Positions 3,889 through 13,195 are shown, counted from the first letter of the stretch. The stretch: 64,000 bases of DNA from Pirellulaceae bacterium (GCA_965216885.1 OZ244208.1:730848-794847); one strand, 5' to 3'. The notes: a model not told the origin generated them from the sequence alone. Program-made: numbers and translations.

Positions 3889-5511
3889 TTAGTCGGCCTG
3901 ATTGGACGACTTCATCAATTGCGCGAGATGGTCCAGCGACTGGGTGCTCTGGTCGTGGGTGCCACCGCCACAAGATTCCGCGACCGTTTCGACCGTGTGG
4001 AGCTGCAGCGCGGCGGGGGTGTCCTGTTCGTCGGAAGCCCGTGGATTGGTGAGCTCCCGTAGGCGACGGTCAGGGTCTTGACCATCGTCGGACGCACGAC
4101 GTTTGGGAACATCCGTTTTTCTACGTCCAGCTCGATTCGCTTCCTGCCAGGGTGCAATGAGGTAGACGAGGCTGAGCCCCAACAGAAGGCCACCGAACGT
4201 ACTACCGAGGACCACGATCTTTGAGCCAGGCCCGACCGGGCGGGTGCCGGCGATGGGCGCGTCGAGTCGGGTGATCAGGCTGGCCGCAAGCGCGGCACTC
4301 TGGCGGCCTCGACCTTCGGCAACAGCGACGCTGGCCAGTCGAAGTTGCTCTCTTCGTTGTTCGACTTTCGCAGTCAGATTCGCGTAGGGTGCCCGTTGGC
4401 GGGCCAATTCATCGAGTCGCGTTTGAACTTCCCGCAGCTTCTTACCGAGCGAATTCCTCAGTTGGCGGTTCACGATCATCTGGGCTTTACTGGTGGCAAT
4501 GGCGTTACGGGCTTCCCGCAGTAGCTGCTGCTTGATGTTCTCTTCGTTGAGACGCGCCGCCTGCACGCGTGGGTGCTGTTCGGTCATTCCGCCGCTGAGT
4601 CGTGCCGTTCGCAGTTGAGCGTCGACAAAACCATCCTTGAGGCGGCTGAGAGCTGGTTGGACTTCCAATAGCTGCTGGGGAGTTGCCAGAATCGCGTCCG
4701 GATCGTCACCGATCTTCATGAGCAATTCGATCAGCTTGGATTGGGTTTCGACCTGGCCTTCCGCCTGACGCATTTCGATTTTGATCTGGGTAAGCGAGCG
4801 ACGAAGGTTGCTGTCGCCCGAACCGGCGGTGACCAGCGTCCGCATCTCGCCAAGGTCGGCTCCAAGAGAACCTTCCATCTTTGAAAGCTCTCTGGTGGCT
4901 TCGTCCAGCGTGTTTTGTGCCAGCTCCTGTTTCTGTTCGAGTTCAGCAATGATGCTGGTCGCGTGTTCGTTACGCAGCTCTTTCATGCGTGCATCAAGCT
5001 GATCGCAGACCGCATTGGTGAGTCCCACGGCGCGTTCTGGCGAGCTGGATGTGACCGACAGGTAGATGACTTCGCTGGTGCCAAACTCCGTGCCCTTCGG
5101 CGCGGAGACACTGATGTCTTTAAGGAAGCTCTCAACGTCCTTGTCGGTCAGCGGTTTCTTGGAGTTCTTCTTTTCCGGGCCTACCGTCTCCATCGCCGTG
5201 CGTGCAACGTTGGGGTTCTTGGCGATCTGCAGGATCGTCTCCAGTGATCGCTTTAGCAGGTCATTGCTGTCGAAGCGGCCCAGCGGTGTACCCGAGCCCA
5301 TGCCCAGTTCGCCTATCGCTTCGTCGCGAACAACCAGCGCCTGCGAGGCTTCCCACGAGTCCTCCTTTGTGACTGCATACAGAAGCCCAACAACCATGAA
5401 GACAACTGTTGGTGTCACCCAGAGCAGTCTGTTTGTCTTGAGTGCGTTGATGATCTTGTCGAAATCAACAAGACGTTTGAGACCTGTTCGCCGTTCGTAA
5501 GGTGTCGACAT
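3889..5511 (-). CDS. Polysaccharide co-polymerase / chain-length determinant (Wzz/GumC-like)
   Basis: An N-terminal TM helix, a long coiled-coil periplasmic region and a second TM near the C-terminus (VVLGSTFGGLLLGLSLVYLIA) give the PCP topology. It is adjacent to the glycosyltransferase. Confidence 0.7.
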   Translation of the reverse strand: MSTPYERRTGLKRLVDFDKIINALKTNRLLWVTPTVVFMVVGLLYAVTKEDSWEASQALVVRDEAIGELGMGSGTPLGRFDSNDLLKRSLETILQIAKNPNVARTAMETVGPEKKNSKKPLTDKDVESFLKDISVSAPKGTEFGTSEVIYLSVTSSSPERAVGLTNAVCDQLDARMKELRNEHATSIIAELEQKQELAQNTLDEATRELSKMEGSLGADLGEMRTLVTAGSGDSNLRRSLTQIKIEMRQAEGQVETQSKLIELLMKIGDDPDAILATPQQLLEVQPALSRLKDGFVDAQLRTARLSGGMTEQHPRVQAARLNEENIKQQLLREARNAIATSKAQMIVNRQLRNSLGKKLREVQTRLDELARQRAPYANLTAKVEQRREQLRLASVAVAEGRGRQSAALAASLITRLDAPIAGTRPVGPGSKIVVLGSTFGGLLLGLSLVYLIAPWQEANRAGRRKTDVPKRRASDDGQDPDRRLRELTNPRASDEQDTPAALQLHTVETVAESCGGGTHDQSTQSLDHLAQLMKSSNQAD

Positions 5512-5759: not shown

Positions 5760-6535
5760 GCTCCGAAGACCTCGGACACGGTTCGGCGGGAGCCTCACCC
5801 TCCCGCGCCGAATTCCCCGAGCAGCGGCATGCACGGGAGGGCGAGGCTCCCGCCGCGCCTGGAATCAAACATGACGTTGCCTCGTATACGGTTCGGCAGG
5901 AGCCTCACCCTCCCGCGCCGAATTCCCCGAGCAGCGGCATGCACGGGAGGGCGAGGCTCCCGCCGAGCCTGGAATCAAACATGACGTTGCCTCGTATACG
6001 GTTCGGCAGGAGCCTCACCCTCCCGCGCCGAATTCCCCGAAGCGGCATGCACGGGAGGGCGAGGCTCCCGCCGAGCCTGGAATCAAGCATGACGTCGCCT
6101 CGTATACGGTTCGGCGGGAGCCTCACCCTCCCGCGCCGAATTCCCCGAGCAGCGGCATGCACGGGAGGGCGAGGCTCCCGCCGCGCCTGGAATCAAACAT
6201 GACGTTGCCTCGTATACGGTTCGGCAGGAGCCTCACCCTCCCGCGCCGAATTCCCCGAGCAGCGGCATGCACGGGAGGGCGAGGCTCCCGCCGAGCCTGG
6301 AATCAAACATGACGTTGCCTCGTATACGGTTCGGCAGGAGCCTCACCCTCCCGCGCCGAATTCCCCGAGCAGCGGCATGCACGGGAGGGCGAGGCTCCCG
6401 CCGAGCCTGGAATCAAGCATGACGTCGCCTCGTATACGGTTCGGCCGGAGCCTCACCCTCCCGCGCCAGGAATCAAACATGACGTTGCCTCGTATACGGT
6501 TCGGCCGGAGCCTCACCCTCCCGCGCCGTCCGCAA
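5760..6535. repeat. Tandem array of about 6 full 110-bp GC-rich repeat units (108-bp variant included) plus 2 truncated copies of about 62 bp; each unit carries an imperfect 18-bp inverted repeat
   Basis: Units begin at 5780, 5890, 6000, 6108, 6218, 6328 and 6438. Each contains the arms GGGAGCCTCACCCTCCCG and CGGGAGGGCGAGGCTCCC separated by about 28 nt. The arms pair perfectly (with one G-U) only in the minus-strand transcript. Confidence 0.9.
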
Positions 6536-7128: not shown

Positions 7129-8892
7129 CTACGCGGTATCGAGAATCACCAGGTCGGGTGCGATTTCCCGCATACGATCGGACATGAAGCGTTTGACGTT
7201 GGCGGTCGTCTTCAGGCGTAGAGCCTGTTGGAAAATGCCCTCGGCCATCTCGACGGTCAGCTTTGCAGCCAGTTGTTTGGTCGTGGGCACGAAAGCCGGG
7301 CTCATGCTGAACTGCCGCAATCCCATGCCCATCAGCAGTACGAAGGCGCGCGGCTGGCCGGCCATTTCGCCGCAAAGCGTCACGGGTTTGCCAGCTTTAT
7401 TGCAGGCTCGGATTACACCACCAAGAACACGGAGCACTGGTGGGCTGAGCGGCTGACAGAGGTGGCTTACTTTGGGATTGTCGCGGTCAGCTGCCATCAG
7501 ATATTGCACGAGGTCGTTGGAGCCAATCGATACGAAATCAACGACGTCCAGCATCAGGTCGATGGCAACCGCTGCGGCAGGAACCTCCAGCATGAGACCG
7601 ACGGGGACTTCGGAAAAGGACTTTCCTTCCGTGCCAAGCTTCCGACCGGCGCGGCGAACGAACGAGCGAACGCGGCGCATTTCCTCAAGGGTTGTGATCA
7701 TGGGGAACATCAGCTTGACCCCGCCACCCAGCTTCTCGGCATAGGATGCTGCCCGCAGGATGGCCCGCACCTGGGTCTCGAAAAACTCCGGATGTTCGAA
7801 GGACAGACGAATGCTCCTCCATCCCATGAACGGATTGGCTTCCTGATGCCGGCCGAGATAAGGAATTGTCTTGTCGCCGCCGATGTCGAGTGTCCGTATG
7901 GTGACGTTGTGATCGGGGCTCGCATCAATGATGTCCCGGTAGGCTGCCAGCTGCTCTTCTTCGTCGGGTACATCCTCGTGCGTCAGGTAGAGATATTCGG
8001 TGCGGTACAGCCCGACACCCGATGCGCCCATGGCACCCGCGGCCAGCGCATCCTGGGCGTGATTGATATTTGCGAGCAACCGTAACGGTTCGCCGTCTTT
8101 CGTGACGGCCGGTTGATCGCGGTTTTCGGCCAGTTGGTCGCGGAGGTGGAAGAATTCCCGTTCGAGTTTACGATACGCTGCCAGCGCTTCGGCGTCGGGG
8201 TTGACGATGACGTGACCCTCGCGTCCGTCGACGACAATGACGTCGCCGGTCTTGACGTTCTTCAGGACACCCACAACGCCACTGACCGCGGGGATACCAC
8301 GGCTCCGCGCGATGATGGCGGCATGGCTGGTTTGGCTTCCCCGCTGGGTCACAATGCCACGAACTTCGGTATCTCCCAACGCGACGGCCTGCGAGGGCAG
8401 GAGTTCGTCGACGCAGATAATCAGTGGTCCATCCAGCGGCGGAGCGACTTCCGGTCTGAGGACGTCCGACAGGTGTGCGCTCAGTCGCACGACGACATCC
8501 CGCACGTCAGCGAGTCGTTCACGAATGTAGTCGTCCGCAGTCGCGCCAAACATGGCCGCGTAGTCGTCCAGCAGTTTCTGCAAGGCGGCCTGTGCCTGAA
8601 TGCGATCTTTGACGATCCACTGCCTGACCTTTTTGGTGAATGCGGTATCGCGCAGAATCGAGCGGTGGGTTTGGAAGATCGCGGCCTCTTCGGGGCCAAC
8701 CTGCTTTTCGACCTTCCGTTGAAGGTTGCGCAGTTCGCTGCTGACCTTGTCTCGCGCGGACTCGTACCTCGCTAATTCTGCGGTTATTTCCTTGTCCACA
8801 AGGCGTTTCGTGTCCGGATCCACGAATATCTCGTGAATGCAATAAGCCGTTCCAACGGCGACTCCGGGAGATACTGCCAAGCCTTTTCTCAT
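7129..8892 (-). CDS. ptsI: Phosphoenolpyruvate-protein phosphotransferase (PTS Enzyme I)
   Basis: The N-terminus is SPGVAVG, the active-site His lies in GSQTSHAAIIARSRGIPAV, and a PEP-utilising TIM-barrel C-terminus follows. Length 587 aa. Confidence 0.9.
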   Translation of the reverse strand: MRKGLAVSPGVAVGTAYCIHEIFVDPDTKRLVDKEITAELARYESARDKVSSELRNLQRKVEKQVGPEEAAIFQTHRSILRDTAFTKKVRQWIVKDRIQAQAALQKLLDDYAAMFGATADDYIRERLADVRDVVVRLSAHLSDVLRPEVAPPLDGPLIICVDELLPSQAVALGDTEVRGIVTQRGSQTSHAAIIARSRGIPAVSGVVGVLKNVKTGDVIVVDGREGHVIVNPDAEALAAYRKLEREFFHLRDQLAENRDQPAVTKDGEPLRLLANINHAQDALAAGAMGASGVGLYRTEYLYLTHEDVPDEEEQLAAYRDIIDASPDHNVTIRTLDIGGDKTIPYLGRHQEANPFMGWRSIRLSFEHPEFFETQVRAILRAASYAEKLGGGVKLMFPMITTLEEMRRVRSFVRRAGRKLGTEGKSFSEVPVGLMLEVPAAAVAIDLMLDVVDFVSIGSNDLVQYLMAADRDNPKVSHLCQPLSPPVLRVLGGVIRACNKAGKPVTLCGEMAGQPRAFVLLMGMGLRQFSMSPAFVPTTKQLAAKLTVEMAEGIFQQALRLKTTANVKRFMSDRMREIAPDLVILDTA

Positions 8893-9148
8893 GTGGGCAA
8901 TTTAGCAGACACGTGCCACCCAGTGTTTCGATTGATTTCCGCCTTCCTGACCAAAATGATGCCGCCAGATGGGGCGCTAACTAATCCCCGCAGGAACTAA
9001 TGGCGCTCGTAGCTGTCCCGTTCGACGTTGCTCGTCTGGACAGAGGGCCCTGGATTCTGGTAAAGCCTTGCCGACAGTAGCCTTAGTTCGGTTGAGCAGG
9101 ATAGGGCTTGGCGATATACTCCGCAGTTTACGCGCGACATCGAGTACT

Positions 9149-9634
9149 ATGCGGTTTACCCTGATTGACAAGATTACCGACCTACATCCCGGTGAAAGGG
9201 TGTGCGCGGTAAAGGGCCTGTCGATGTCCGAAGAGTATTTGCAGGACCATTTTCCGTTGTTTCCGGTGATGCCGGGCGTGCTGATGCTGGAGGCTTTGTA
9301 TCAATCCAGCTGTTGGTTGGTGCGTGTGACGGATGACTTTTCGTGCAGCATGGTGCAACTTGCAGAAGCGAGAAACGTAACTTACAAGGATTTTGTCCAA
9401 CCCGGGGAATCGCTTTCTATAGAGAGTCGAATCCACAAACGGGTGGACAATCGCGTCACGGTTCAGGCCGAGGGGAAGGTGGACGGTCGATCTGCAGTGA
9501 AGGCTCGGCTGGTTTTGGATTGTTTCAATCTAGCCGATCGTGATCTTGCTAGCAGCTCCATCGATTCGTACATCATTCAGGAACTCAGGCGGGAATACGA
9601 GAACCTGCGTGGCGTCGTCATAGAACAGGGCTGA
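9149..9634 (+). CDS. fabZ: 3-hydroxyacyl-ACP dehydratase (FabZ-type hot-dog fold)
   Basis: Carries the FabZ catalytic signature HFPLFPVMPGVLMLEAL. I chose the Met at 9149 (MRFTLIDKI) rather than the ORF-track start at 9068. Confidence 0.8.
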   Translation: MRFTLIDKITDLHPGERVCAVKGLSMSEEYLQDHFPLFPVMPGVLMLEALYQSSCWLVRVTDDFSCSMVQLAEARNVTYKDFVQPGESLSIESRIHKRVDNRVTVQAEGKVDGRSAVKARLVLDCFNLADRDLASSSIDSYIIQELRREYENLRGVVIEQG

Positions 9635-9731
9635 ATCAGCGTTGTGATCGGCCGATTTACAAGATATGAACGTGCGTGCAAAAAAAGAGTAAAAGCAGGC
9701 ACCGGTAAGAAAAACAGAGGAGTGTATTCAG

Positions 9732-10118
9732 ATGGCACCATCTAATGACGAAGTGTTTCAGAAAGTTCAGGAGGCACTCGTTGAGGCGCTAGGCGTTGAT
9801 GACGACGAGGTAACTCCGGAATCCACGCTGGTGGGTGACCTCGGCGCGGAGTCAATCGACTTTCTGGATATCGTGTTTCGCCTGGAAAAGGCCTTTGGCA
9901 TTGAGATTCCGCGAGCAGAGTTGTTCCCAGAGGACATTCTGACCAACGCTGAATATGTCGAAGGTGGTCGCGTGACGTCGACGGGTGTCGCGGAACTCAA
10001 GAAACGTATGCACTTCGCTGATCTTTCCAAGTTCGAAGCGAATCCGCTGATCTCCGAATTCCCGAATCTGCTGACCGTCAATGACATGTGTCGGTACGTT
10101 GCAAGCAAGTTGGCCTGA
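9732..10118 (+). CDS. Acyl carrier protein, unusually long (128 aa) with a C-terminal extension of about 45 aa
   Basis: DLGAESIDFLDIVFRLEKAFGIEIP is the phosphopantetheine Ser motif (DSL-like). The RBS GAGGAG lies upstream. Confidence 0.75.
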   Translation: MAPSNDEVFQKVQEALVEALGVDDDEVTPESTLVGDLGAESIDFLDIVFRLEKAFGIEIPRAELFPEDILTNAEYVEGGRVTSTGVAELKKRMHFADLSKFEANPLISEFPNLLTVNDMCRYVASKLA

Positions 10119-10122
10119 CGAC

Positions 10123-10668
10123 ATGCGATGGTGGTGGATAGACCGGTTCGTTGAATTCCAGAGCGGCAAGTACGCCAAGACGGTGAAGAACGTCTCGCTC
10201 GCCGAGGAACAACTCGACGACTACATGCCTGCCCATCCGGTCATGCCGCACTCGCTCATCATTGAGGGACTGGCGCAGACCGGTGGGTTGCTGGTTGGCC
10301 AACTGAGCGATTTCGAACGCAGCGTCGTGCTGGCGAAGGTATCCAGCGCGAAGTTCTATTTCGCGCCGACGCCCGGAGACCAATTGTCGTATCACGCGGT
10401 TCTGGAAAGAATCGAAACCGACGGAGCGCTCGTCTGCTGTACCGTGCATGTTGGTGAGCGACTACAGGCGAACATTGATTTGTACTTTGCCTACTTCGAC
10501 AACCGTGGCATTCAGCGGGGCCAGTTTATTCCCGCCGACTTTTTGCGCATGATGCGCGTGTTCCGGCTTTTTGATGTAGGCGTGGATGCCGATGGCAATC
10601 CGCTGAAAGTACCCGAGAGACTGCTCGAAGCCGAAAAACAGAACCTCACGGGTTCGGTGACCTCGTAA
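10123..10668 (+). CDS. FabA/FabZ-like hot-dog dehydratase, second paralog
   Basis: YMPAHPVMPHSLIIEGLAQTGG matches the hot-dog dehydratase His motif. The start sits 4 nt after the ACP stop. The ORF-track start at 10081 would overlap the ACP gene. Confidence 0.7.
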   Translation: MRWWWIDRFVEFQSGKYAKTVKNVSLAEEQLDDYMPAHPVMPHSLIIEGLAQTGGLLVGQLSDFERSVVLAKVSSAKFYFAPTPGDQLSYHAVLERIETDGALVCCTVHVGERLQANIDLYFAYFDNRGIQRGQFIPADFLRMMRVFRLFDVGVDADGNPLKVPERLLEAEKQNLTGSVTS

Positions 10669-10736
10669 GGTTTTGTGCTTTCCGGCGAGCCGGATCGAAA
10701 GGCTCCGTATAAGAACGTCTGTTCACGGTGGCCATG

Positions 10737-10901
10737 TTATTTTTGGTCCGTCAAAACCAGCCACAAAGCGTGAACCATGCCGGGGATGCCGCCCAGCAGA
10801 GTCAGAATGATGTTAACCCAGAAGTGCATCCCTGTATTCACTTGCAAGAACGCGGCAATCGGTGGAAACACAATCGACAACACGATTTTGACAATCTGCA
10901 T
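10737..10901 (-). CDS. Pmp3/YqaE (UPF0057) family small proteolipid, 54 aa
   Basis: Not in the ORF track because it is under 60 aa. Manual translation gives MQIVKIVLSIVFPPIAAFLQVNTGMHFWVNIILTLLGGIPGMVHALWLVLTDQK. This matches the Pmp3/YqaE consensus (ILPPLGV...FWINILLT.LGYIPG.IHALY). Confidence 0.75.
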   Translation of the reverse strand: MQIVKIVLSIVFPPIAAFLQVNTGMHFWVNIILTLLGGIPGMVHALWLVLTDQK

Positions 10902-11077
10902 ACTTTCATTTCCTTGGGGTTAGTGAATTGTCCAACAGTAATTCGTCGACGGAGAGCCATTCTTGGCAAAATCCGCGTCGCGGCGAATGTCGGCGGTCCG
11001 AAAGACACGCCGGCTAAAAACGGCCGTCGTGATATGCTTATCAATCTGCAACTCAACTGTACGTTCGAGGCCCAGCC

Positions 11078-12358
11078 ATGCGAAGGCGAGTAGTCATTAC
11101 TGGAGTCGGTTCTATCAACCCGATGGGACACGATGTGGAAACCGTTTGGTCAGGCCTGAAAGAAGGCAAATCGGGCGTCGGTTTCACGTCGATTTTTGAC
11201 GCCAGTCGGTTCCCGACCAAGATCTCCGCGGAGGTCAAAAACTGGAGTGTTGCGGACGCCGGAATCGATGCGGAGGAGTGGAAGTTTCGCGGACGGCATA
11301 CTTGCTTTGCGGCCGGTGCGGCCACGCAGGCGGTCGAGGGTTCTGGTGTACTCGAAGCAGGCCTGGACCCGGTTCGCTTTGGTGTCTATCTGGGTTGCGG
11401 CGAGGGTAATCAGGATTTTGGCTCCTTCACCGAAATGATGACCGCCGCGCTGACGGATGACGGTTTGGACATCGCCGAATTTACGCGTAAGGGCCTCGAG
11501 ATTCTGAATCCGATGCTCGAGCTTGAGCAGGAACCCAACATGCCGTGCGGTCATCTCGCCAGCATGTTTAACGCCCAAGGCCCAAACCTGAATTGTCTGA
11601 CCGCGTGCGCGGCCAGTAGCCAGGCGATCGGTGAAGCCAGCGAGATCATCCGCCGCGGGGACGCGGACGTCATGCTATCCGGTGGCACGCACAGCATGAT
11701 TCATCCGTTCGGTGTCACAGGTTTCAACCTGTTGACGGCGCTCTCAGAGAACAATGAAGTGCCCGAGAAAGCCTCGCGACCCTTCGATCGACTTCGTGAC
11801 GGCTTTGTGCTTGGCGAGGGCTCCGCGATGGTTGTGCTGGAAGAGTACGAAATGGCGAAGAAACGCGGTGCTCATATTTTCGGCGAAATCCTCGGCTACG
11901 GAACGACCGCCGACGCCTACCGCATCACCGACATTCACCCGGAAGGTCGCGGTGCAATTGCCTGTATGAAGATGGCGATGGAGGACGCGAACGTTACTCC
12001 CGCAGACATTGACTACGTGAATGCTCACGGCACCAGCACCACCGTGAATGACAAGATCGAAACACTCAGCTGTCGTGCTGCTTTTGGCGACCATGCGGAG
12101 AAGATTCCCGTTTCCAGCACGAAGAGCATGATGGGACATCTGATCGCGGCAGCGGGCGTGACCGAACTGATCGTTTGCCTGATGGCAATGCGGGACAATG
12201 TGTTACCGCCGACGATCAACTACGAAAATCCGGATCCCCTGTGCGACCTGGATTACATTCCCAATGAAGCTCGTGAGGCGGAATGCAACATCGCCCTGAA
12301 TAACAGCTTTGGGTTCGGCGGACAGAATATCACGCTGATTGTCGGCAAGCCTTCCTGA
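11078..12358 (+). CDS. fabF: Beta-ketoacyl-ACP synthase (KAS I/II, FabF/FabB-like)
   Basis: Begins MRRRVVITGVGSINPMG, has the active-site Cys in the NCLTACAAS context, two His motifs (HGTSTTVND, GHLIAAAGV) and NSFGFGG at the C-terminus. Confidence 0.85.
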   Translation: MRRRVVITGVGSINPMGHDVETVWSGLKEGKSGVGFTSIFDASRFPTKISAEVKNWSVADAGIDAEEWKFRGRHTCFAAGAATQAVEGSGVLEAGLDPVRFGVYLGCGEGNQDFGSFTEMMTAALTDDGLDIAEFTRKGLEILNPMLELEQEPNMPCGHLASMFNAQGPNLNCLTACAASSQAIGEASEIIRRGDADVMLSGGTHSMIHPFGVTGFNLLTALSENNEVPEKASRPFDRLRDGFVLGEGSAMVVLEEYEMAKKRGAHIFGEILGYGTTADAYRITDIHPEGRGAIACMKMAMEDANVTPADIDYVNAHGTSTTVNDKIETLSCRAAFGDHAEKIPVSSTKSMMGHLIAAAGVTELIVCLMAMRDNVLPPTINYENPDPLCDLDYIPNEAREAECNIALNNSFGFGGQNITLIVGKPS

Positions 12359-12446
12359 TCCCAGGTCCAGCCAACATCGCCAGCTCGAACGAGAAGCTGG
12401 TTTTGAAACCTGGAGTCCAGTAGCAATTGCCCAGTAACAAAGACAA

Positions 12447-12481
12447 AGCCCCGCGCGAATCCGCGCGGGGCTTTGTGCTTT
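12447..12481. terminator. Bidirectional intrinsic terminator between the convergent fabF and the Cys-rich lipoprotein gene
   Basis: GC hairpin GCCCCGCGCG-AATC-CGCGCGGGGC flanked by T-runs on both strands. Confidence 0.65.
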
Positions 12482-12592: not shown

Positions 12593-13024
12593 TCACGGTC
12601 CGATCGAAGGTGGATTCGAGACGAAGAAGTCGCGAGGTCCACGCGTCGTGTAGTACGGATACGTTACCTGAGGACTTGGTGGGCCGTTAGCAGGACCGGG
12701 CATTCCGCCCATGTGCGACTGCGGTCCACGATGGTGTTGGCCAATGAACGAAGCCAGAGGTCCGGTGTGCCCACCGCGAACGCCATAGCCATCGCCGTTC
12801 AACGTTTCCGGTGTTGCGCAGTTGCCGCTATTGCAGCCGCCACCCAAGCTTCCCAGTAGTCCGGATAGACCACATGCGCCCGAGGCGCAACCACTGCTGC
12901 ACGAGTCGCAACCGACCGGGCCAGCGTCACAACCGCCGGCTCCGCAGCCACCCGTGGATTGACATCCTGTGGTGGCGACGCATAGCAGAAACGCAGCCAC
13001 AAGGGCTGTCATACTCTTTATCAT
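12593..13024 (-). CDS. Cys/Gly-rich lipoprotein, paralog of 1997-3016
   Basis: The lipobox is ATTGC, followed by GGCGAGGCDAGPVGCDSCSSGCASGACG in a Gly/Pro-rich tail. I chose the internal Met at 13024 (MIKSMTAL). Confidence 0.6.
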   Translation of the reverse strand: MIKSMTALVAAFLLCVATTGCQSTGGCGAGGCDAGPVGCDSCSSGCASGACGLSGLLGSLGGGCNSGNCATPETLNGDGYGVRGGHTGPLASFIGQHHRGPQSHMGGMPGPANGPPSPQVTYPYYTTRGPRDFFVSNPPSIGP

Positions 13025-13195
13025 CTGATTTCCCCCCAAAAACGGCTCACCAGAAACGGCGCACGCCGTCTGGGTTGCCAGCAAAATGCTTGAAGCGGAC
13101 TCGTTTTCCAATGCGGGCGAAAACGAACCTGTTTAGATGATCGACCTGAGTTTCGGTAGAATTGAGAAAATCGGGAAATTCGATATGACCGAGTA

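Follow-up and report, generated by a model that had tools for sequence, protein, structure and literature searches.

The locus described here raises the question of whether a bacterium that packs an acyl carrier protein (ACP), two dehydratases, and a condensing enzyme into one cluster encodes there the core of its type II fatty acid synthase (FAS) or a separate system that runs beside it. The cluster occupies positions 9149-12358 on the plus strand of a 64,000-nucleotide stretch from a Pirellulaceae bacterium (GCA_965216885.1 OZ244208.1:730848-794847), hereafter referred to as the window, and consists of four co-directional genes, all of them real, for a first dehydratase (DH1), an ACP, a second dehydratase (DH2), and a β-ketoacyl-ACP synthase (KAS). 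The reading that we favor, with a probability of roughly 0.45 and thus short of an even chance, is that of an ancient module for type II FAS elongation, inherited vertically within the class Planctomycetia, which has its own ACP and would work beside a canonical acpP system. The four genes are as follows:

9149-9634, plus strand: DH1, a FabZ-type 3-hydroxyacyl-ACP dehydratase paralogue of 161 aa (Pfam FabA-like domain, E 3e-16)
9732-10118, plus strand: ACP of 128 aa (PP-binding, E 1e-12), with phosphopantetheine Ser41 and an internal insertion of ~45 aa
10123-10668, plus strand: DH2, a second FabZ paralogue of 181 aa (FabA-like domain, E 1e-10), with Tyr34 and Glu48
11078-12358, plus strand: KAS, a FabF-type β-ketoacyl-ACP synthase II of 426 aa (N- and C-terminal ketoacyl-synt domains, E 2e-44 and 3e-39)

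A preliminary description, made from the sequence alone, had claimed this four-gene cassette together with an antisense Pmp3 gene, a tight 4-nt spacing between ACP and DH2, and the absence of fabG, fabI, and fabD/fabH. The gene content is borne out by Pfam, NCBIfam, and independent gene calls on three public contigs with an identical KAS, which return the same five genes; the sequence gives an ACP-DH2 gap of 4 nt (TGA cgac ATG) and a DH2-KAS gap of 409 nt; and tblastn with E. coli FabG, FabD, FabH, FabI, FabA, and AcpP detects no further fab gene in the 64-kb window. The same description viewed the locus as a tight, conserved unit with an unusual dedicated ACP, distinct from the standard fab operon, and this is supported as well, with the ACP and both dehydratases falling below the NCBI equivalog cut-offs.

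The conservation of the cassette was assessed in 86 non-redundant loci chosen on DH2, for which a metagenome scan seeded on DH2 gave 568 matches and added 80 loci; all synteny counts are therefore conditional on the presence of DH2, and their denominators are the loci with enough flanking sequence. Every locus with sufficient room has the ACP gene directly before DH2 (61/61); DH1 is found upstream in 41/45, and KAS follows downstream in 42/46. The four genes recur in the same order between unrelated flanks in Blastopirellula marina, a Planctomycetaceae metagenome-assembled genome (MAG), another planctomycete contig, and an 8.5-Mb scaffold. Compared with B. marina, the ACP is 79% and the KAS 74% identical, whereas DH1 and DH2 are only ~50% identical, and the same disparity is seen across orders, where the dehydratases share ~50% identity as against 64-91% for the ACP and 67-92% for the KAS. 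Loci L030, L036, L058, and L090 show ACP-DH2-KAS with no DH1 upstream despite sufficient room, and loci L018, L063, L080, and L084 carry DH2 without a KAS within the downstream sequence covered.

In 17 of the 45 loci with enough upstream sequence, a gene for FabG lies between DH1 and ACP, and the fuller cluster is thus FabZ-a, FabG, ACP, FabZ-b, and FabF, i.e., the universal fabG-acpP-fabF triad with a dehydratase paralogue on either side of the ACP; the lineage of the window has lost fabG from the cluster. These in-cluster FabGs are 38-50% identical to E. coli FabG. The type represented by locus L074 scores 337 bits with TIGR01830, above the cut-off of 297.75, while those of L038 and L050 (293 and 285 bits) fall just below it, yet above the cut-off of the FabG subfamily model. 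In a few of the FabG-type loci, KAS is followed by another short-chain dehydrogenase, which is more distant (33% identity with E. coli FabG), at 7566-8351 in L074 and 2763-3314 in L081.

Beyond these genes, little is shared. Clustering of 310 flanking open reading frames (ORFs) yielded one common neighbor, a divergent ptsI in 18 loci, and otherwise a Cys/Gly-rich small protein and scattered unrelated genes; the flanks differ by lineage and resemble housekeeping neighborhoods. No lipid-tailoring, desaturase, acyltransferase, transfer, transport, export, or polyketide synthase (PKS) gene is conserved beside the cassette in the 86 loci, nor does a chain-length factor (CLF), a second ketosynthase (KS), a thioesterase, an adenylating enzyme, an LpxXL-type acyltransferase, a radical-SAM enzyme, a phytoene desaturase, a methyltransferase, or an exporter adjoin it in any of them.

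The ACP departs from known carrier proteins in its architecture. The PP-binding profile of Pfam matches residues 10-65 only, which correspond to profile positions 1-55 of 67. An AlphaFold model derived from 32 homologues (predicted local distance difference test, pLDDT, 88; predicted template modeling score, pTM, 0.80) comprises helix I at residues 5-20, helix II from Ser41, a short helix III region at 61-71, and a terminal helix IV at 116-127, with a β-hairpin and three short helices at about residues 72-113, between helices III and IV. In a Foldseek comparison, canonical ACPs of 78-81 aa align with the model over 118-126 columns, at both ends, with a target-normalized TM score of ~0.8, and the extra segment is found in no solved ACP. 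Since the profile stops at residue 65 and the canonical ACPs align with both ends of the model, the additional ~45 residues must lie inside the protein, inserted between helices III and IV; the C-terminal extension of ~45 aa that had first been proposed is rejected.

The insertion is as conserved as the remaining protein, and 73 of 75 aligned tblastn segments span 123-128 aa, consistent with its presence throughout; the phosphopantetheine Ser is invariant in 75/75 orthologues. The N-terminal part of the ACP finds its best NCBIfam matches among housekeeping ACP models, and the AcpXL-type model is not its best match. However, the protein reaches only 55.4 bits against the equivalog cut-off of 70.45 for TIGR00517 and lies barely above that of the subfamily model NF002150 (67.1 vs. 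66 bits). Its homologues are numerous, with >8000 matches in a database search, and the best 120 are at least 77% identical; those among them that are named belong to Bremerella, Blastopirellula, Pirellulaceae, Planctomycetales, and Planctomycetaceae.

The KAS is of a more familiar kind. The preliminary description had left it as KAS I/II, which the NCBIfam models, the Protein Data Bank (PDB) matches, and the intact catalytic triad together resolve in favor of the second: it scores 467 bits with PRK07314 (cut-off 387), 475 bits with TIGR03150 (below its cut-off of 493.75), and ~288 bits with the FabB (KAS I) models. It shares 42% identity with E. coli FabF, and the PDB entries most closely related to it are the housekeeping FabFs of Listeria, Bacillus, Thermus, Synechocystis, and E. 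coli, with 381 bits for Listeria FabF as against 226 bits for KasA. The triad Cys177-His317-His354 is invariant in 44/44 orthologues. By its triad and its score above the PRK07314 cut-off, the KAS is a FabF (KAS II). Compared with housekeeping FabFs, it has ~13 additional residues inserted near positions 113-135, a region that is free of gaps in 44/44 orthologues.

Both dehydratases are related to FabZ and neither reaches an equivalog cut-off, with DH1 at 90.5 and DH2 at 74.5 bits for NF000582 (cut-off 113) and at 84.6 and 73.4 bits, respectively, for TIGR01750 (cut-off 155). With the FabA model TIGR01749 (cut-off 238), DH1 scores 17 bits and DH2 has no match, and both carry Glu instead of the FabA-type Asp. 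The suggestion that DH2 is more FabA-like was consequently abandoned: its best NCBIfam models are FabZ models, it retains the Glu in the alignment, and it is a FabZ paralogue with a Tyr in place of the catalytic His. The DH2 family is of modest size (44 clusters at E < 1e-30 in a full-library HMMER search), and DH2 has a conserved C-terminal extension of ~50 aa. Among the best PDB sequence matches of both proteins are entries for amxFabZ of anammox bacteria, and for DH1 also canonical FabZs, over which amxFabZ leads by only ~4 bits. The precomputed ApeI-like Pfam match falls on DH1, and no Ape protein is present among the PDB sequence matches of either dehydratase.

Alignment to solved FabZs assigns the catalytic positions. 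DH1 has the catalytic His34 and Glu48, both of which are invariant in 49/49 orthologues, and at the position of the FabZ tunnel Gly it carries Ala or Cys55, followed by Trp56 in 48/49. The DH2 of the window has Tyr34 at the position of the catalytic His and keeps Glu48; in the family at large, position 34 is His in 46/87 and Tyr in 36/87, while Glu48 and the tunnel Gly55 are invariant in 87/87. His34 is found in every locus with an in-cluster FabG and in B. marina, and Tyr34 in every ptsI-adjacent locus and in the window. An initial impression from 20 representatives, that the change from His to Tyr marks the whole DH2 family, was overturned by the 87-sequence alignment with its 46 retained His residues. 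The adjacency of ptsI upstream of DH1 tracks exactly with the sub-lineage that has Tyr in DH2.

DH1 and DH2 also occur as natural fusions of ~350 aa, in which DH1 forms the N-terminal and DH2 the C-terminal half. An alignment of 30 fusions shows invariant His34 and Glu48 residues in the N-terminal half and an invariant Glu218 in the C-terminal half, whose His position is unconserved. A model of one fusion (pTM 0.80) consists of two hot-dog domains with a disordered linker, i.e., a double hot-dog fold. Among PDB entries, the model is closest to a chain of 342 residues in 2cf2, which describes the architecture of mammalian FAS; thioesterases with a double hot dog and PKS dehydratases (CurK and MlnB; 9-17% identity) rank next, while single FabZ chains match half of the model. 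The double hot-dog dehydratases of type I FAS and PKS resemble the fusions in having the His in the N-terminal and an acidic residue in the C-terminal hot dog; they differ from the halves in the window, which are encoded by separate genes with the ACP gene between them and are similar in sequence to FabZ. In Thermoguttaceae, the fused genes stand apart from ACP and KAS, amid housekeeping genes. On one metagenome contig (L009, 8638-9765, minus strand), a fusion gene is divergent from a FabH-like (ACP_syn_III) gene, and in a Thermoguttaceae MAG (L010, 11167-12357, plus strand) it is followed by an iron-dependent alcohol dehydrogenase, with no ACP or KAS linked in either case; a check for AcpXL-type features found such a dehydrogenase beside a fused dehydratase in this one locus only.

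Following the Rosetta-stone principle, the fusions allow DH1 and DH2 to be read as the two subunits of what is probably a FabZ-like heterodimeric dehydratase, a reading with which the distribution of catalytic residues agrees. The active site of FabZ is shared, with the His contributed by one subunit and the Glu by its partner. A Gly a few residues past the Glu lines the acyl tunnel (PMC10139942). Given this shared site, the tunnel Gly, and the pattern of conservation, the site that is always maintained would be the one formed by His34 of DH1 and Glu48 of DH2, with the open-tunnel Gly55 of DH2. The reciprocal site, composed of residue 34 of DH2 and Glu48 of DH1 and lined by Ala/Cys55-Trp56 of DH1, is predicted to be constricted, and the Tyr lineage and the fusions may each have lost it independently, which would leave one working site per dimer there.

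In the elongation cycle that we propose for the module, the ACP would be phosphopantetheinylated on Ser41 and carry the growing chain, which the FabF-type KAS, through its Cys-His-His triad, would condense with malonyl-ACP. The resulting 3-keto group would be reduced by FabG, encoded within the operon in other lineages and elsewhere in the genome in that of the window, and the 3-hydroxyacyl-ACP would be dehydrated by the DH1-DH2 heterodimer, while FabD and an enoyl reductase would be borrowed from elsewhere in the genome. The product is most likely an ordinary reduced acyl chain, either saturated or hydroxylated, and not a polyketide. Plausibly, the insertion of the ACP and the C-terminal extension of DH2 provide the partner recognition by which the traffic of this ACP is kept separate.

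The case for a parallel role is built on relatives in which a canonical set is documented. Rhodopirellula baltica, of the same family, has fabD (RB314), an 81-aa acpP (RB318), and fabB/F (RB320) together (PMC2754498), in addition to five FabB/F paralogues (PMC2754498, PMC2649909). Similarly, Kuenenia holds the canonical set Kustd1386-1389 (PMC2649909) beside extra ACP/FabZ/FabF sets (PMC4790861). As both encode a canonical fabD-acpP-fabF set with an ACP of ~80 aa, an auxiliary role for the cassette is plausible, and to this extent the role initially assigned to it stands, whereas the PKS-like, polyene, ladderane, or lipid-A flavor attached to that role is unsupported. The failure of the ACP and both dehydratases to reach the curated equivalog cut-offs also favors a parallel role. 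Furthermore, the anammox amxFabZ dehydrates its substrate on amxACP and not on the canonical ACP (PMC10139942), and by analogy the module may be orthogonal to the canonical system.

Several observations weigh against this reading. The coexistence of the cassette and a canonical acpP/fabF/fabZ set in one genome is presumed, the canonical sets being drawn by analogy from the literature on R. baltica and Kuenenia. Rhodopirellula is absent from the named matches of the long ACP, including those of a search with the B. marina ACP, and the two systems could thus replace one another instead of working together. A core operon would show exactly the features seen here, namely the fabG-acp-fabF order, the FabF-like KAS, the very high conservation of the ACP, and the housekeeping surroundings. 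Additionally, the proposed heterodimer is deduced from fusions and residue logic, and the retention of His in about half of the DH2 family limits the picture of a single active site to some lineages.

The strongest competitor, which we regard as possible at clearly less than even odds, is that the cassette constitutes, contrary to the preliminary description, the main, possibly the only, type II FAS core of the organism, in which the insertion ACP serves as AcpP and DH1/DH2 as FabZ, and the R. baltica-type set is a lineage-specific replacement or addition. The order DH1-fabG-acp-DH2-fabF mirrors the universal fabG-acpP-fabF, and one of the two FabG sequence types passes the equivalog cut-off; the KAS is nearest to housekeeping FabFs and exceeds the NCBIfam FabF subfamily cut-off, and the N-terminal part of the ACP best matches housekeeping models. 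The ACP (64-91%) and KAS (67-92%) are conserved across orders, with the dehydratases at ~50%; the cassette is very common, as judged from the >8000 ACP matches and 568 metagenome matches; accessory genes are absent; the fused dehydratases stand alone amid housekeeping genes; and the named long-ACP matches are without Rhodopirellula. Set against this, a canonical short acpP lies by fabD and fabF in two planctomycete lineages, including the same family, and is probably ancestral and retained (PMC2754498, PMC2649909). The ACP scores 55.4 bits where TIGR00517 demands 70.45, both dehydratases are far below the FabZ cut-offs, no characterized housekeeping ACP has such an insertion, and DH2 of the window lineage has lost its catalytic His. 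The narrower proposition, that in most Planctomycetia this operon is the sole FAS core, with an ACP bearing a 45-residue subdomain and a FabZ that is an obligate asymmetric heterodimer, fused in Thermoguttaceae and repeatedly deprived of one site, is one that we hold to be unlikely.

In R. baltica SH1, at 4,346,427-4,347,360, a hypothetical ORF of 142 aa, RB8119 (isoelectric point 10.1), overlaps the start of RB8123 on the same strand (supplement of PMC2754498). If RB8123, annotated as "fabZ" and, at 177 aa, of the size of DH2, corresponds to DH2, this is the site where the long-ACP gene would lie, and RB8119 could be a mis-called ACP, which is suggestive and unproven.

Comparison with characterized systems places the locus, in our view, best among the variants of type II FAS, with ordinary chemistry and an unusual architecture of carrier protein and dehydratase. 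The canonical systems of E. coli and B. subtilis share its enzyme families and catalytic residues, and the orthologous clusters with an in-cluster FabG (17/45) also have the fabG-acp-fabF order. Unlike them, the cassette has an ACP with a 45-aa insertion that is below the AcpP cut-off and two divergent FabZ paralogues that flank the ACP, where those systems have a single homomeric FabZ encoded elsewhere in the genome; in addition, the His of DH2 is lost in the window lineage, and fabD and fabH are unlinked. The FAS-II of mycobacteria employs an enlarged AcpM, heterodimers of catalytic and non-catalytic hot-dog proteins (HadAB and HadBC; for HadAB, see PMC4491049), the FabF-type KasA/KasB, and the FabG-type MabA. 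It is similar to the proposed module in its working but lacks homology in detail, in that the Had proteins are MaoC-type and not FabZ-type hot dogs, the AcpM tail is C-terminal, and the KAS of the window prefers FabF to KasA (381 vs. 226 bits).

ACP and FabZ are among the most stereotyped of bacterial proteins and are antibiotic targets. Three features lie outside the textbook type II FAS and were absent from the literature searched, namely an ACP that carries, throughout the class, a conserved additional subdomain, a FabZ split into two paralogues, which some lineages have fused and of which others have lost one catalytic His, and the location of both inside a fabG-acp-fabF frame. For planctomycetes, literature searches returned no description of such a FabZ heterodimer or of an ACP with an insertion. 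If the parallel module is real, it implies a so far unknown lipid pathway common to Planctomycetia. If the cassette is instead the core, the understanding of ACP recognition in Planctomycetia would change, and the dehydratases would form a natural series from two genes with two sites, through two genes with one site, to a fused double hot dog, which could serve as a model for the origin of megasynthase dehydratases. Were it the sole core, all ACP-dependent enzymes of an entire bacterial class would have a rewired interface between ACP and partner, and the DH1-DH2 pair would represent an extant stage between the homodimer of FabZ and the double hot dogs of megasynthase dehydratases.

A further possibility is an anaerobic branch for unsaturated fatty acids like FabA/FabB or the FabN/FabO of Enterococcus, in which one FabZ paralogue would isomerize enoyl-ACP from trans-2 to cis-3 and the dedicated FabF would extend the cis intermediate. 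Two FabZ paralogues with a FabF paralogue reproduce the FabN/FabO gene logic (PMC9671860), and in roughly half of the family the His/Glu dyad is intact in both dehydratases. We nonetheless consider it very improbable: with the FabA model TIGR01749, DH1 scores 17 bits against 238 and DH2 is not matched, the catalytic His is lost from DH2 in the window lineage and from the corresponding half of the fusions, branches of this type are not known to need a dedicated ACP, and R. baltica encodes a delta-9 desaturase, RB4876 (supplement of PMC2754498). Isomerase activity is, moreover, a property that sequence cannot reveal.

The preliminary description had likened the cassette to specialized lipid clusters, and three of these merit comparison. 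The rhizobial acpXL-fabZXL-fabF2XL-fabF1XL cluster combines a dedicated ACP with one paralogue of FabZ and one or more of FabF, and fabD and fabI are missing from it. It is set apart by a second KAS gene, an alcohol dehydrogenase, and the LpxXL acyltransferase, all absent from the cassette, which has a single KAS and no conserved acyltransferase. The aryl-polyene clusters encode ApeI and ApeP, two FabZ-like hot-dog proteins reported to form a heterocomplex. The likeness lies in this pair and in the ApeI-like Pfam match on DH1; the ApeO/ApeC KS-CLF, ApeR, a dedicated ketoreductase, a thioesterase, a methyltransferase, acyl- and glycosyltransferases, and lipid-transfer and LolA/MMPL export proteins were found neither in the window nor in the 86 loci. 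The amxACP-amxFabZ-FabF cluster of anammox bacteria, which belong to the same phylum (Kuenenia kuste3603-3608; PMC10139942, PMC4790861), likewise places a dedicated ACP by a variant FabZ and FabF homologue(s), but it alone has a single homohexameric FabZ with a tunnel Ile, a FabF that is non-canonical, and genes for a phytoene-desaturase-like protein and a B12 radical-SAM enzyme. These marks of the candidate ladderane cluster, i.e., the radical-SAM and phytoene-desaturase-like genes and the non-canonical FabF, are absent from all loci, where the KAS triad is intact.

The least probable of the readings, a specialized PKS-like type II cluster for aryl polyenes or other polyenes, ladderanes, or AcpXL-like very-long-chain lipid A, can draw on the dedicated atypical ACP, the lack of an enoyl reductase in the cluster, the ApeI-like Pfam mark on DH1, the amxFabZ entries among the best PDB sequence matches of both dehydratases, and the presence of a FabZ-ACP-FabG set (kuste3339-3341) inside a candidate ladderane cluster of Kuenenia (PMC4790861), but it is very improbable because characteristic accessory genes lie beside the cassette in 0/86 loci, where only the four genes besides FabG (17/45) and ptsI (18) are conserved, the KAS is a standard, housekeeping-like FabF with an intact triad, the lead of amxFabZ over ordinary FabZs is only ~4 bits, and the cassette is far more widespread than any known specialized planctomycete lipid.

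Three smaller features lie within or at the borders of the transcription unit:

10737-10901, minus strand: Pmp3/YqaE-family proteolipid gene, 54 aa (PF01679, E 1.5e-18)
9092..9120, plus strand: candidate weak sigma-70-like promoter TTGAGC-17-TATACT, 29 nt upstream of DH1 (1 site vs. 1.9 expected by chance)
12443..12476, strand not assigned: perfect 15-bp GC-rich hairpin, 85 nt past the KAS stop

The antisense Pmp3 gene in the DH2-KAS gap is real, as had been proposed (66.9 bits vs. a gathering score of 22.9 for PF01679, with 48 of 49 profile positions covered), but it is not part of the conserved cassette. It is confined to L001-L004, i.e., the contigs of the window's own strain and the closest relative L004, which is 75% identical, and a functional role within the cassette was rejected on these grounds. 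All other related loci lack it and have a DH2-KAS gap of 23-526 nt (median ~105). Since the next relatives, L005 and L006, are without Pmp3 and have gaps of 42-127 nt, the gene represents a recent insertion that split the operon.

The counts of the promoter and terminator scans do not exceed the chance expectation. The hairpin was flagged by the scan on the minus strand, and its T-run on the plus strand is weak; it likely marks the end of the transcription unit after KAS. The window has a G+C content of 55-61%, and the genes around the cassette are typical of planctomycetes, with WD40, Kelch, FHA, and PSCyt/PSD-type proteins.

Upstream of DH1 and divergent from it, a gene for a ptsI-like phosphoenolpyruvate-utilizing enzyme of 587 aa occupies 7129-8892 on the minus strand. 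Between the ptsI-side genes and a 540-aa ORF (3889-5511, minus strand), positions 5770-6467 hold 6.4 tandem copies of a 110-bp unit with 96% identity, each copy with an internal GC-rich inverted repeat. Convergent to KAS, a Cys/Gly-rich ORF at 12593-13111 on the minus strand, where the public calls have no gene, encodes a protein whose N-terminus resembles a signal or lipoprotein sequence and whose C-terminus bears the conserved motif YPYYTxRGPRDFxxxNPPSIG. A homologue of this ORF is similarly placed in at least 13 related loci, among them L004, L011, L012, L013, L016, L071, L078, L082, L083, L092, and L093.

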